Of a stretch of DNA of 35,452 bases, positions 3 through 10,698 are shown piece by piece; position 1 is the first letter of the stretch, and every line of letters starts with the position of its first letter. Source of the DNA: Escherichia coli (lineage in GTDB: Bacteria; Pseudomonadota; Gammaproteobacteria; Enterobacterales; Enterobacteriaceae). A model generated the notes under the pieces. That model searched no databases. It was not told where the DNA came from and was given only the letters and a program-made list of their open reading frames with translations. A program made the translations under genes and the position numbers. Location: the NCBI RefSeq assembly GCF_003334305.1, contig NZ_QOWS01000033.1; one strand, written 5' to 3'.

Positions 3-497
3 GGTTTAGGAGAAGGCTCTGCATTACCGGTTGGGGTGCCTGTTCCGTGGCCTTCAGCCACTCCGCCAACAGGCTGGCTGAAATGCAATGGTGCGGCTTT
101 TTCTGCTGAAGAATACCCGGAACTGGCAAAGGCTTACCCGACCAATAAATTGCCTGATTTACGTGGTGAGTTTATTCGTGGCTGGGATGATGAACGTGGT
201 GTGGATAGTGGGCGAACTCTGCTTTCATCGCAAGGAGATGCTATTCGAAACATTACTGGCGGTTTTGGTCAGTTGCGCGTAAACAGCGAAATTAATGCAA
301 TTGTCGATGTTCAAAGTGTGAGTGGGGCTTTTTACGGAGGTACCTCAGTCCGGAATAACATCAATGTGTCTATGACATACGCTAATGACCGAAAAATCCG
401 ACAAGATGTTCACTTCTCGGCGGCAAATGTTGTTCCAACAGCAAATGAAAATCGTCCACGTAACATCGCCTTTAATTATATTGTGAGGGCCGCATGA
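3..497 (+). CDS. Tail fibre protein, C-terminal variable part (5'-truncated by window edge; constant part lies upstream)
   Basis: Frame is open from position 3; the translation (GLGEGSALPVGVPVPW...GWLKCNGAAFSAEEYPEL...) resembles phage tail-fibre tips; the stop overlaps the start of the next gene (ATGA at 494-497). Confidence 0.65.
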   Translation, partial: GLGEGSALPVGVPVPWPSATPPTGWLKCNGAAFSAEEYPELAKAYPTNKLPDLRGEFIRGWDDERGVDSGRTLLSSQGDAIRNITGGFGQLRVNSEINAIVDVQSVSGAFYGGTSVRNNINVSMTYANDRKIRQDVHFSAANVVPTANENRPRNIAFNYIVRAA

Positions 498-1102
498 TGA
501 ATAAAGCTGTATTAAATAGCAAACTCATTGCCATAAAAGCGGGAGACATTATCATTTATAATTATGATGGTGAAACGCGGGAATATATTTCTACATCAAC
601 TGAATATCTCGCTGTCGGCGTCGGTATCCCGGCATGTTCTTGTTTAGATGCTCCGGGCTCAAACAAAGCTGGTTATGCAATTTGTCGTTCTGTAGATTTA
701 AACTCATGGGAATATGTGCCAGACCATCGCGGTGAAGTTGTCTATAGTACCGAAACGGGAGATACCAAAGAAATCACAGCTCCGGGTGATTACCCTGAAA
801 ATACAACCATTATCGCCCCATTAACGCCATACGATAAATGGGATGGTGAGAAATGGGTGACCGATACTGAGGCACAGCATAGCGCCGCAGTAGACGCGGC
901 AGAAGCACAGCGTCAGTCACTGATTGATGCTGCAATGGCTTCCATCAGTCTGATTCAGCTGAAATTACAGGCCGGACGGAAGTTGATGCAGGCAGAAACA
1001 ACCCGGCTTAACGCCGTGCTGGATTACATTGACGCGGTGACGGCAACAGATACCAGCACCGCGCCTGATATTATTTGGCCTGTATTCCCTGAGACTGATT
1101 AA
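494..1102 (+). CDS. Tail fibre assembly chaperone (Tfa / P2 G-like)
   Basis: 202-aa ORF immediately after the tail-fibre gene with start/stop overlap; position and size fit a tail fibre assembly protein. Confidence 0.65.
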   Translation: MMNKAVLNSKLIAIKAGDIIIYNYDGETREYISTSTEYLAVGVGIPACSCLDAPGSNKAGYAICRSVDLNSWEYVPDHRGEVVYSTETGDTKEITAPGDYPENTTIIAPLTPYDKWDGEKWVTDTEAQHSAAVDAAEAQRQSLIDAAMASISLIQLKLQAGRKLMQAETTRLNAVLDYIDAVTATDTSTAPDIIWPVFPETD

Positions 1103-1292
1103 CCTCAATTAGTATTGGTTCGCCTTTCTCATTAATTGTTAGCTCCATGCCCTGAGGAATTTCTGTCATAGTAAAAAACCAGTTGTCCTCCGGTAATTCA
1201 ATAGCCCCGGTCACGTCATGAAGACCGGGGATTACTTCAGTCAAAGTAACTGGATTAAACAGGCGCACAATAAACCCTCCAGGAAAAAGCAT
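1071..1292 (-). CDS. Alternative (inverted-orientation) short tail fibre assembly protein
   Basis: Minus-strand ORF convergent with the plus-strand assembly gene, downstream of the minus-strand fibre cassette; start placed at an internal Met; arrangement mirrors Mu G-segment / e14 cassettes. Confidence 0.35.
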   Translation of the reverse strand: MLFPGGFIVRLFNPVTLTEVIPGLHDVTGAIELPEDNWFFTMTEIPQGMELTINEKGEPILIEVNQSQGIQAK

Positions 1293-1596
1293 TTGATGAT
1301 GGTCTGCCGTCGTACATCTGGCAGCGGGCATAAAAGCCGGTATTTGTTACCTGATCATCCACGATCATTGAAACATGAACATTATTAGGTGTGCTCTCGT
1401 AATCCGTTCTTATTCTTTCCGCGATACTGATAAAACGTGAAAGTTTAGGCAGTGCAATTGGGTAAACAACTTTAGCCAGTCCATTATCATTAGATCCACC
1501 GGTTCCAAATACTTCTATTGCACCGTCTGACCAGCGTATCCATGCACCATTGGCATTAGCTCCTCGCTGAATGACATATCTGGCTTCTCCCAAACC
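1255..1596 (-). CDS. Alternative tail-fibre C-terminal cassette, promoterless, expressed only after inversion
   Basis: Minus-strand frame encodes ...VGLGEARYVIQRGANANGAWIRW...; the VGLGE junction matches the GLGE junction at the window start; the Met codons at 1638 lie outside the inverted repeat and are probably incidental. Confidence 0.5.
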   Translation of the reverse strand, partial: GLGEARYVIQRGANANGAWIRWSDGAIEVFGTGGSNDNGLAKVVYPIALPKLSRFISIAERIRTDYESTPNNVHVSMIVDDQVTNTGFYARCQMYDGRPSSNAFSWRVYCAPV

Positions 1597-1659: not shown

Positions 1660-2232
1660 ATGATCATGCTTATTGGCTATGTACGCGTGTCAACAAATGA
1701 CCAGAACACCGATTTGCAACGTAATGCACTGAACTGCGCGGGATGTGAGCAGATTTTTGAGGACAAAATCAGTGGCACTAAGTCCGACAGACCGGGGCTG
1801 AAAAAACTACTCAGGACACTATCGGCAGGAGACACGCTGGTTGTCTGGAAGCTGGACAGGTTGGGGCGCAGTATGCGGCATCTTGTTACGCTGATAGAAG
1901 AGTTGCGCCAGCGTGGTGTGAATTTCAGAAGCCTGACTGACAGTATTGATACCAGTACCCCAATGGGTCGTTTCTTTTTTCATGTCATGGGTGCCCTGGC
2001 TGAAATGGAACGCGAACTGATAGTTGAACGTACCAGGGCAGGGCTGGCTGCAGCTCGTGCCAAAGGCAGAGTAGGTGGACGCCGTCCTAAGTTGACCACC
2101 GAACAGTGGGCACAGATTGGGCGTTTACTCGAGGCCGGAGAATCAAGACAGCGTATTGCACTGATTTTTGATGTAGGCGTTTCTACCATTTATAGAAAAT
2201 TTCCGGCAAATAAGATCAATGAATCCCCCTGA
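1660..2232 (+). CDS. Serine DNA invertase (Pin/Gin/Hin/Cin family)
   Basis: N-terminus IGYVRVSTNDQ with the catalytic Ser context, a resolvase-type catalytic domain and a C-terminal HTH (GVSTIYRKF); lies directly beside the right crossover site. Confidence 0.85.
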   Translation: MIMLIGYVRVSTNDQNTDLQRNALNCAGCEQIFEDKISGTKSDRPGLKKLLRTLSAGDTLVVWKLDRLGRSMRHLVTLIEELRQRGVNFRSLTDSIDTSTPMGRFFFHVMGALAEMERELIVERTRAGLAAARAKGRVGGRRPKLTTEQWAQIGRLLEAGESRQRIALIFDVGVSTIYRKFPANKINESP

Positions 2233-4126: not shown

Positions 4127-4429
4127 ATGAGCGATAAGCAGACTGAAAAGACCATTCAACTGGATACCCCCATCAAGCGCGGTAAAACAGAAATCACCGA
4201 AATTGTGCTGCGTAAACCGCAGTCCGGTGCGCTACGCGGTACACGCCTGCAGGCCATTATGGATATGGATGTAAACGCGATGATGACCGTGATCCCCCGC
4301 ATCTCCAGTCCGGCACTGACTGCACAGGAAATTGCAGAGATGGACCCGGCAGATCTCACTGCCATGTCGGTTGAGGTTGTCACTTTTTTGTTGAAGAAGT
4401 CGGTGCTTGCCGGTTTACCGACAGCCTGA
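4127..4429 (+). CDS. Tail assembly chaperone E
   Basis: 100-aa ORF between tube and tape measure; contains the slippery run TTTTTTG near its 3' end. Confidence 0.75.
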   Translation: MSDKQTEKTIQLDTPIKRGKTEITEIVLRKPQSGALRGTRLQAIMDMDVNAMMTVIPRISSPALTAQEIAEMDPADLTAMSVEVVTFLLKKSVLAGLPTA

Positions 4430-4563
4430 CGGTTGACGATCTGGTGGCAGATATCGCCACCATTTTTCACTGGCCGCCATCCGTTACTGACGTTATGCCG
4501 CTGACCGAAGTGCTGGAATGGCGGTATAAAGCGATTCAGAGAAGCGGGGCCAACGATGAGTGA
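4127..4563 (+). CDS. Tail assembly chaperone E+E' made by a programmed -1 frameshift at TTTTTTG (4384-4390)
   Basis: The -1 frame after the slippery site stays open to a TGA at 4561-4563, encoding ...ADIATIFHWPPSVTDVMPLTEVLEWRYKAIQRSGANDE and overlapping the tape-measure ATG at 4556. Confidence 0.6.
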
Positions 4564-9782: not shown

Positions 9783-9956
9783 ATGGATACAAACGAACTT
9801 GGCTTAGTTAAGGCGCGTGTTGAACTGATCACCGCTATGCTCAAATGCGCAACCGCGTTTGTTGGCTTAGTTGGTGCGGTTTACGCCGTTCTTAACATGG
9901 CCTTCAACTACAACAATTTAACTCATGACAATAGAAGTTCAAAGGTGGGAAGATAA
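9783..9956 (+). CDS. Small hypothetical protein with one hydrophobic helix (possible small effector, or frameshifted RT N-terminus)
   Basis: Only open frame across 9768-9956; GGAGGA Shine-Dalgarno about 7 nt before the ATG at 9783; hydrophobic stretch AFVGLVGAVYAVLNMAF; overlaps the RT start by about 30 nt in another frame. Confidence 0.3.
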   Translation: MDTNELGLVKARVELITAMLKCATAFVGLVGAVYAVLNMAFNYNNLTHDNRSSKVGR

Positions 9957-10698
9957 ATTTGAGATTAAGCCCGGGGTTTGGGTTTATGTCCCAAGCGTTG
10001 AGGCACGTAAAGTCGGAGGGAAGATACTTCAGGCTGTCAGAAACAAGTGGATTCCGCCACTCTATTTTTACCATCTAAGAACTGGTGGGCATCTTAAAGC
10101 TGCCAGATTACACTTAAAAAGTGATTTTTTTGCCGTTGTTGATATTAAACAATTTTTTCAGTCAACGAGCCGTAGTCGTATCACCCGTGATCTAAAGAGC
10201 TACTTCACCTATTCTCAAGCGCGGGAAATCTCAACATTTTCAACTGTAAGAAACTTGTCCCATAGTCCACATAAGCATGTCCTCCCTTTTGGTTTTGTTC
10301 AATCTCCAATACTTGCAACCCTCTGCTTAGATAAAAGTTATTTTGGTAGCTTACTACGCCGATTGAACAAACATCATGATCTCAAGCTAAGTGTGTTTAT
10401 GGATGATGTGATCATCTCGTCAAACGATTTGGCCCAATTACAAGCGGCTTACGACGAAGCACTAGTGGCAATGCGTAAATCTGGTTATCAAGCCAACATG
10501 AGTAAAACTCAGGCACCATCGTCAAAGATTAGCGTGTTTAATTTAACTTTGAGTAAGGGAGTTATGAAAGTCACATCTCAGAAAATGAGTGACTTCCTGA
10601 TTGATTTCTATTCAAGCAATTATGAGCCGCACAGAATAGGGGTCAAAAACTACGTCGAAGCTGTTAATCCAGGGCAAGCGAAACTCTTTAAGTTGTAA
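9925..10698 (+). CDS. Compact reverse transcriptase (retron/Abi/DRT-like RT domain)
   Basis: RT motifs readable in the translation: fingers FEIKPGVWVYVPS, motif A VVDIKQFFQS, motif B LPFGFVQSPILATLCL, catalytic YxDD box FMDD; AT-rich with rare codons (AGA, ATA, CTA). Confidence 0.75.
   Translation: MTIEVQRWEDKFEIKPGVWVYVPSVEARKVGGKILQAVRNKWIPPLYFYHLRTGGHLKAARLHLKSDFFAVVDIKQFFQSTSRSRITRDLKSYFTYSQAREISTFSTVRNLSHSPHKHVLPFGFVQSPILATLCLDKSYFGSLLRRLNKHHDLKLSVFMDDVIISSNDLAQLQAAYDEALVAMRKSGYQANMSKTQAPSSKISVFNLTLSKGVMKVTSQKMSDFLIDFYSSNYEPHRIGVKNYVEAVNPGQAKLFKL

Follow-up and report, generated by a model that had tools for sequence, protein, structure and literature searches.

A 65-residue protein encoded on the minus strand of an invertible tail fiber segment in Escherichia coli is, with a probability that we put at roughly 70%, the normal and selected partner of the alternative fiber tip S'v. 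By homology and structure prediction, it would consist of the N-terminal domain of a tail fiber assembly (Tfa) protein alone and most likely acts as a minimal chaperone or remains on the tip as a cap. The protein is currently labeled 'hypothetical protein' in RefSeq (WP_001440573.1), 'uncharacterized' in UniProt and 'unknown function' in phrog_5400. Invertible fiber switches in P2-like E. coli prophages are already known (PMC4272514), as is the two-domain Tfa. What is new is a widespread and selected Tfa family without the C-terminal domain, annotated as hypothetical. Our literature search found the switches and the two-domain model, and no report on Tfa proteins devoid of the C-terminal domain.

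The window, that is, the whole 35,452-nucleotide stretch of DNA that was analyzed (contig NZ_QOWS01000033.1), carries a P2-like E. coli prophage integrated beside ssrA. It starts inside the tail fiber gene, at the left crossover point of the invertible segment. Upstream bases and gene order were read from an identical genome, E. coli A7 (NZ_CP028767, locus L001). The prophage genes are arranged in the order baseplate V-W-J-I, fiber, Tfa, two minus-strand 'hypothetical proteins', recombinase, sheath, tube, E/E', tape measure, U, D and ogr. At the prophage end, between ogr and ssrA, positions 9925-10698 (+) encode a 257-aa protein with a reverse transcriptase domain, preceded by a small 57-aa ORF. 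In PADLOC, the retron-type RT_VI model matches it best (E 7e-18), and the gene is probably defense cargo in a P2 hotspot.

Two matching 26-bp crossover sites, with no further sites, identify the locus as a Mu-G/P1-C-type (Gin/Cin-type) invertible tail fiber segment of about 1.6 kb. The sites are visible in the window as a 15-nt inverted repeat (1-15 and 1584-1598, 93% complementary). The left site begins 12 bp 5' of the window and reads TTCTCACATACC-TT-GGTTTAGGAGAA in the identical genome; its right half occupies 1-15. The right site (1583-1608) reads TTCTCCCAAACC-AA-CGTTTAAGAAAA, or TTTTCTTAAACG-TT-GGTTTGGGAGAA when reverse-complemented. Read directly against each other in the latter orientation, the two sites are identical at 19 of 26 positions, the central dinucleotide included. 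A half-site search for extra crossover sites, which would allow a nested inversion joining the short gene to the other Tfa's C-terminal domain, returned the two outer sites only, with the remaining matches at chance level. The adjacent gene at 1660-2232 (+) encodes a 190-aa serine DNA invertase of the Gin/Cin/Pin/Hin type (phrog_125 DNA invertase, E 8e-102; 'recombinase family protein' in RefSeq).

The segment contains two convergent cassettes. On the plus strand, Sv (1-497), a variable C-terminal fiber tip of the P2 gene H type, is in the expressed orientation (phrog_523 tail collar fiber, E 4e-68). It is joined to the constant part 5' of the window, and the whole fiber has 514 aa ('phage tail protein' in RefSeq, 1953-3497 in L001). 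The full-length, TfaE-like assembly protein is encoded at 494-1102 (+) and matches phrog_105 (E 3e-96). It has 202 aa when read from 494, and 201 aa from the second ATG at 497, the start chosen by RefSeq. Caudo_TAP (PF02413) covers its residues 79-200 (E 3e-30). An 11-bp inverted repeat (1012-1022 and 1053-1063, 91% complementary, 30-nt loop) is located within the end of this gene that encodes the C-terminal domain, near the convergent overlap of the two partner genes. On the minus strand, the silent alternative tip S'v occupies 1255-1595. It matches the C-terminal end of phrog_2557 (E 5e-21) and, weakly, Gp53-like_C (PF21882; E 0.0088, 17 bits, model positions 2-80 of 84). S'v comprises about 109 aa after the GLGE motif encoded by the crossover site, and inversion would give a fiber of 463-469 aa.

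The short partner gene lies at 1071-1268 (-). The sequence-only reading, which was made from the DNA letters and their open reading frames, had described a minus-strand ORF of at most 86 aa at 1071-1331 next to a 202-aa plus-strand protein. The ORF list and RefSeq confirm these coordinates and lengths, and the maximal ORF has 86 aa. It had also placed the likely start about 74 residues from the stop, which needs correction. The likely start is a GTG at 1268, giving 65 aa, and not the ATG at 1331 (86 aa) or the ATG at 1292 (73 aa). A GGAGG Shine-Dalgarno sequence is found 7 nt 5' of this GTG, and RefSeq annotates the same interval, 1071-1268. Homologues open with MRLFNP... at an ATG or GTG codon equivalent to 1268, ATG in many of them. 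In three homologues a stop codon is located one residue 5' of this codon. The stop of the S'v tip is at 1255-1257, and the GTG start gives a 14-nt overlap of tip and short gene, as expected from the overlap with the end of the tip that had been noticed earlier. The start region is located inside the last codons of the fiber, which encode WRVYCAPV and the stop. At its 3' end, the short gene (final 10 codons and stop) runs antisense to the closing 32 nt of the plus-strand Tfa gene (1071-1102).

Structural and profile analyses indicated that the short protein is related to one half of Tfa. An AlphaFold2 model, built from a 39-sequence alignment, predicts a small β domain of the Tfa N-terminal type at residues 1-56 (pLDDT 90) and a disordered tail at residues 57-65, which is specified by the strand opposite the final codons of the plus-strand Tfa. 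The ORF ends these 9 residues past the β domain, and the conserved C-terminal helical (DUF4376-like) domain is absent. In a Foldseek search of AFDB50, short uncharacterized homologues were listed first, followed almost exclusively by proteins of 100-190 aa named 'tail fiber assembly protein' or DUF4376. These align over their N-terminal 55-65 residues, with TM scores of 0.6-0.73. Searches of the 65-aa protein gave no match to Pfam Caudo_TAP (PF02413) at E<=10 and none to NCBIfam models, and no relatives were detected among solved structures, including by Foldseek-PDB.

Several distant homologues contain both domains. The N-terminus of the 131-aa P0098 (residues 1-50) shares 45% identity with the short protein over 51 aligned positions (BLASTP, E 1e-15), and Caudo_TAP matches P0098 over residues 12-131 (E 4e-20). 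Among phages outside the P2-like group, the closest relative is the 128-aa gene_1 product of Cronobacter phage JK004. Its residues 1-57 align with the short protein at 34% identity, and its residues 60-127 form a canonical Tfa C-terminal domain (phrog_188, 3792, 136 and 105). P0086, P0087 and P0106 combine the same two domains. A profile search of 1.8 billion representatives yielded 41 proteins in two size classes, 53-85 aa and about 103-154 aa. The longer class adds a C-terminal region, and its clearest members (125-147 aa) end in ...W..Y......VD....P.I.WP...P. A profile that includes the C-terminal domains of the long relatives finds Mu TfaU (5yvq) at its C-terminus (E 9e-5). The long relatives are preceded by a homologous tip (NANGWYEIYSDG...), and 1 nt separates the two genes. 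The C-terminal domain is found only in such distant relatives, which are about 25-45% identical in the N-terminal domain. According to two papers, the variable Tfa N-terminal domain binds the fiber tip and the conserved C-terminal helical domain mediates multimerization (PMC9608196 and PMC7882524, citing North et al., 2019). Homology and the fold match to Tfa N-terminal domains, together with these published roles, suggest that the 65-aa protein is a stand-alone Tfa N-terminal β domain, by homology the tip-binding half.

Two other profile results were set aside. The short protein matches phrog_5400 at profile positions 1-66 of 145, which could be taken as a sign of truncation. We rejected this interpretation because the extra positions do not correspond to the Tfa C-terminal domain; the JK004 protein, which has that domain, matches profile positions 1-62 only. 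Matches to giant proteins (P0099, 1709 aa, 8 matched stretches) are spurious and come from unrelated repetitive surface proteins.

Shortness is a property of the whole family. Homologues of the short protein number in the hundreds. The 81 database homologues have 47-90 aa, except for one frameshift-riddled metagenomic read of 128 aa. The well-populated clusters, from Escherichia, Salmonella and Enterobacter, have 61, 65 or 73 aa, depending on the start called. A complete ORF of 59-69 aa from the conserved start is found in 48 of 50 IMG/VR viral loci (58-98% identical); the remaining two are truncated, one at a contig end and one by disruption. Of 5,426 complete E. coli genomes, 116 contain the cassette. 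Over a 55-codon core, dN/dS has a median of 0.13 and a maximum of 0.38, with synonymous sites near saturation (pS 0.65-0.88) and pN of about 0.2. Column entropy at codon positions 1, 2 and 3 is 0.58, 0.40 and 1.30 bits, respectively, and each of the five other frames contains stops in nearly every homologue sequence. The short gene is real, conserved and under purifying selection, and is not a chance ORF. In a separate set of records (H13-H16, H55 and H56, labeled DH5alpha, B-766, HBUT-L, hubt-sl and KO11FL), the short gene seems to be interrupted at its 5' end by an IS3-family element. The protein of these interrupted copies (P0059, 62 aa) begins MCHY..., and the cassette match spans query positions 172-530 only.

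The short gene is also tightly associated with one type of tip. In the loci examined, it is always located directly behind an S'v-type tip ending in ...FSWRVYxAPV, and the fiber stop lies 11 nt past the start of the short gene (a 14-nt overlap) in 22 of 25 loci. More than 20 loci have the S'v tip joined to a fiber of 390-474 aa, with the short gene next in line, and about 15 have the tip in the silent orientation. In E. coli JX21CE33 (L059), the identical 65-aa protein is encoded behind a 463-aa fiber, and the cassette is flipped relative to the window. Both orientations of the segment occur in natural genomes. The JX21CE33 invertase gene (769-1322 in L059) is annotated as frameshifted, and therefore its segment is probably locked in the S'v orientation. 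The divergence of tips and that of their partners show a moderate correlation (Pearson r 0.45), which simple linkage could explain.

Some relatives possess the short gene as the sole partner. L036 and L051 have the order J, I, fiber with an S'v-type tip, short gene (61-69 aa) and sheath, and contain neither an invertase nor another Tfa. Their sheath, tube and baseplate genes closely resemble those of the window. The short gene in these loci fills the slot of P2 gene G, between fiber and sheath, and L033, L035, L037 and L050 have a similar arrangement. In L039, a 73-codon vestige is all that is left of the Tfa in the other cassette, and S'v and the short gene are kept. Another group of loci (L021-L026, L030 and L031, at about 4200-4440) has an opposite cassette without a Tfa gene. 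A 22-residue C-terminal vestige overlaps the end of the short ORF there, the convergent fiber tip ends in ...GGDGAPGIVIVEEYA, and the short gene is intact.

The origin of the short form may be recorded in two of the loci. Directly 3' of the short ORF, on the same strand and in another frame, L042 (4181-4260) and L039 (4187-4270) contain a vestige of the C-terminal end of Tfa. In L042 the plus strand encodes ...ALAVSTASSAPDINWPTPPEE followed by a stop (tblastn E 0.001), and the minus strand encodes ALEAVDTASASDIEWLNYPE followed by a stop. In both loci the region is an imperfect palindrome, with both strands encoding Tfa C-terminal ends, and looks like a deletion scar where two convergent Tfa genes met. 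The vestiges suggest an old deletion of the C-terminal domain, by which the short form would have arisen from a two-domain Tfa where two inverted, conserved 3' ends were joined. We infer that the palindrome drove this loss. In the window, no remnant of a C-terminal domain is found 3' of the short ORF; the DNA there is the antisense of the plus-strand Tfa. Since the domain occurs only in distant relatives, any loss appears, by sequence comparison, to be ancient and family-wide and not a defect of this copy.

Two further loci show other arrangements of tips and partners. In the metagenomic L058 (398-1228), a 131-aa Tfa with the same N-terminal domain and a 144-aa Caudo_TAP gene converge and abut without a spacer (793/794). 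This is the symmetric arrangement that the earlier reading had expected. In phage JK004 (93.8 kb; L004, 1987-4387), a 417-aa fiber with its own tip is followed on the same strand by a tip-only ORF, gene_2 (119 aa), and then by the 128-aa Tfa. Gene_2 starts at a crossover-like motif, LGE, and no invertase was seen within the 5 kb examined. The tip-only ORF and Tfa could serve as a spare cassette or belong to a switch with several segments.

We propose the following mechanism. As sequenced, the constant part of the fiber is joined to the Sv tip and has the full-length 201/202-aa Tfa behind it. The adjacent serine invertase would flip the segment of about 1.6 kb between the two 26-bp sites, which would join the constant part to the 109-aa S'v tip and bring the 65-aa gene directly behind it. 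Because the Shine-Dalgarno sequence and the GTG are located inside the last codons of the fiber, we propose that the short gene is translated by coupling to the fiber gene after inversion. The S'v tip is predicted to be a β-sandwich, weakly similar to gp53-type tips. Its 65-aa partner would bind the tip, serving as a minimal chaperone or remaining there as a cap, and the tip would trimerize without help from a Tfa C-terminal domain. We also modeled three copies each of tip and short protein with AlphaFold2. This linker-fused 3:3 model, a single chain computed from a 12-row paired alignment, did not yield a confident complex (mean pLDDT 59, pTM 0.54) and speaks neither for nor against binding. 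In it, the S'v β-sandwich reached a pLDDT of 75-88, and the short domains 40-60.

The sequence-only reading had proposed two explanations for the asymmetry, a naturally short chaperone that works with the short tip and a decayed second orientation. Much of the former is upheld: the shortness is family-wide, the gene is under purifying selection and strictly syntenic with the tip, and it is the only gene after the fiber in non-invertible relatives. The chaperone role is the part that we infer. The latter, in which the ORF would be a non-functional remnant of a full-length Tfa and the S'v cassette dead, is highly improbable. Some observations do point toward it. Distant relatives carry the C-terminal domain, the out-of-frame vestiges in L042 and L039 indicate that a deletion probably happened once, and residues 57-65, disordered in the model, are simply read from the strand opposite the final codons of the other Tfa. 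However, the ORF is intact and of constant length despite saturated synonymous sites, and the median dN/dS of 0.13 indicates selection. The S'v orientation was found expressed in many genomes, and phages that lack an invertase have no partner other than the short gene. In L039, decay has struck the other cassette and spared S'v and the short gene. Decay of this copy had been expected to appear as a frameshift or deletion against full-length homologues; no close homologue is full-length, and no frameshift is found here. Comparison of the C-terminal assembly domain, suggested as a check of the short ORF, gave the reverse outcome: it is the variable N-terminal domain that is kept, and the conserved C-terminal domain is wholly absent.

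Two more explanations accept a functional gene. The short protein might require a C-terminal domain supplied in trans, either by the 202-aa Tfa or by the Tfa of another prophage. The two partner genes are neighbors, and an E. coli genome often contains multiple Tfa genes; with a 2.3-kb query that also spans the Tfa and invertase genes, at least partial matches were obtained in half of the complete genomes. We nevertheless regard this as quite unlikely, slightly less so than decay. With the segment in the S'v orientation, the fiber transcript runs antisense to the other Tfa. Non-invertible relatives contain no other Tfa in the tail module, and in L021-L026 the other Tfa is the 22-residue vestige while the short gene is intact. 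A less remote alternative, to which we assign a minor share of the probability, is that the protein is not a folding chaperone but a structural accessory on the mature fiber, shaping receptor recognition or protecting the tip. Mu TfaU, which stays bound, and T2/T6 gp38 are known examples of such tip-associated behavior. The short protein keeps the tip-contacting Tfa domain alone and is devoid of the assembly-driving domain, and the conservation and synteny fit an accessory as well as a chaperone. Two papers also report that Mu Tfa remains on the virion (PMC9608196, PMC7882524). On the other hand, the protein is acidic and very small, and the evidence does not distinguish the accessory from the chaperone reading; one does not preclude the other. 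Trimerization is credited to the C-terminal domain, and a protein that lacks it may fall outside the classical definition of a chaperone. Our preferred reading, a normal partner of the S'v tip that is either a minimal chaperone or a retained cap, accommodates both roles.

A selected family with the tip-binding domain alone would mean that at least one class of tips manages without the Tfa C-terminal domain. The short gene offers a simple test of whether this conserved domain is needed. More tentatively, and we consider the full proposal doubtful, the C-terminal domain could be dispensable for a lectin-like class of tips. A stand-alone tip-binding domain of 56 residues would then be enough, as a minimal chaperone or host-recognition cap, and the loss would have been driven by instability of the palindrome at the convergent Tfa 3' ends within the invertible segment. 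Our analysis gives a putative function to a gene labeled hypothetical, uncharacterized or unknown, and indicates that an asymmetric invertible cassette should not be annotated as decayed. For the engineering of fibers and tailocins, swapping in the S'v tip would need only a 200-nt partner gene.

The locus is organized like other invertible fiber segments. Mu G, P1 C and e14 P, which are served by Gin, Cin and Pin, have the same adjoining serine invertase and two 26-bp inverted sites in the fiber frame. They also have two convergent cassettes of tip plus partner, and both orientations are found in nature. The partners differ. Mu's two partner proteins are similar in size, about 175 and 177 aa, whereas those described here have 201/202 and 65 aa, and their convergent 3' ends overlap by 32 nt.

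The short gene is located directly behind the fiber gene, like the genes of Tfa proteins (Mu U/U', P2 G, lambda Tfa and e14 TfaE; PF02413, DUF4376). Compact Tfa proteins of 125-150 aa have an N-terminal β domain that is homologous to the short protein and has the same predicted fold. The pairing of the short protein with one tip type is also as expected of the variable fiber-binding domain. However, Tfa proteins have 125-200 aa and contain the conserved C-terminal helical domain, whereas the short protein has 65 aa, is without that domain and matches no Pfam or NCBIfam model. The closest two-domain counterparts are JK004 gene_1 (128 aa), P0086, P0087 and P0098, with N-terminal domains 34-45% identical to the short protein. 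JK004 gene_1 and its relatives follow a homologous tip (NANGxW..SDG motif), and their tip and partner genes are tightly juxtaposed, as in the window. Unlike the short protein, they keep the canonical C-terminal domain (phrog_188/3792, PF02413). In the structure of Pam3 gp25 in complex with the fiber gp24, the N-terminal β-sandwich 'tentacle' of gp25 binds the fiber tip and the C-terminal helical bundle trimerizes (PMC9608196). No sequence or Foldseek-PDB similarity was detected between gp25 and the short protein. Pam3 gp25 has both domains, and the short protein would represent half of that modular plan.
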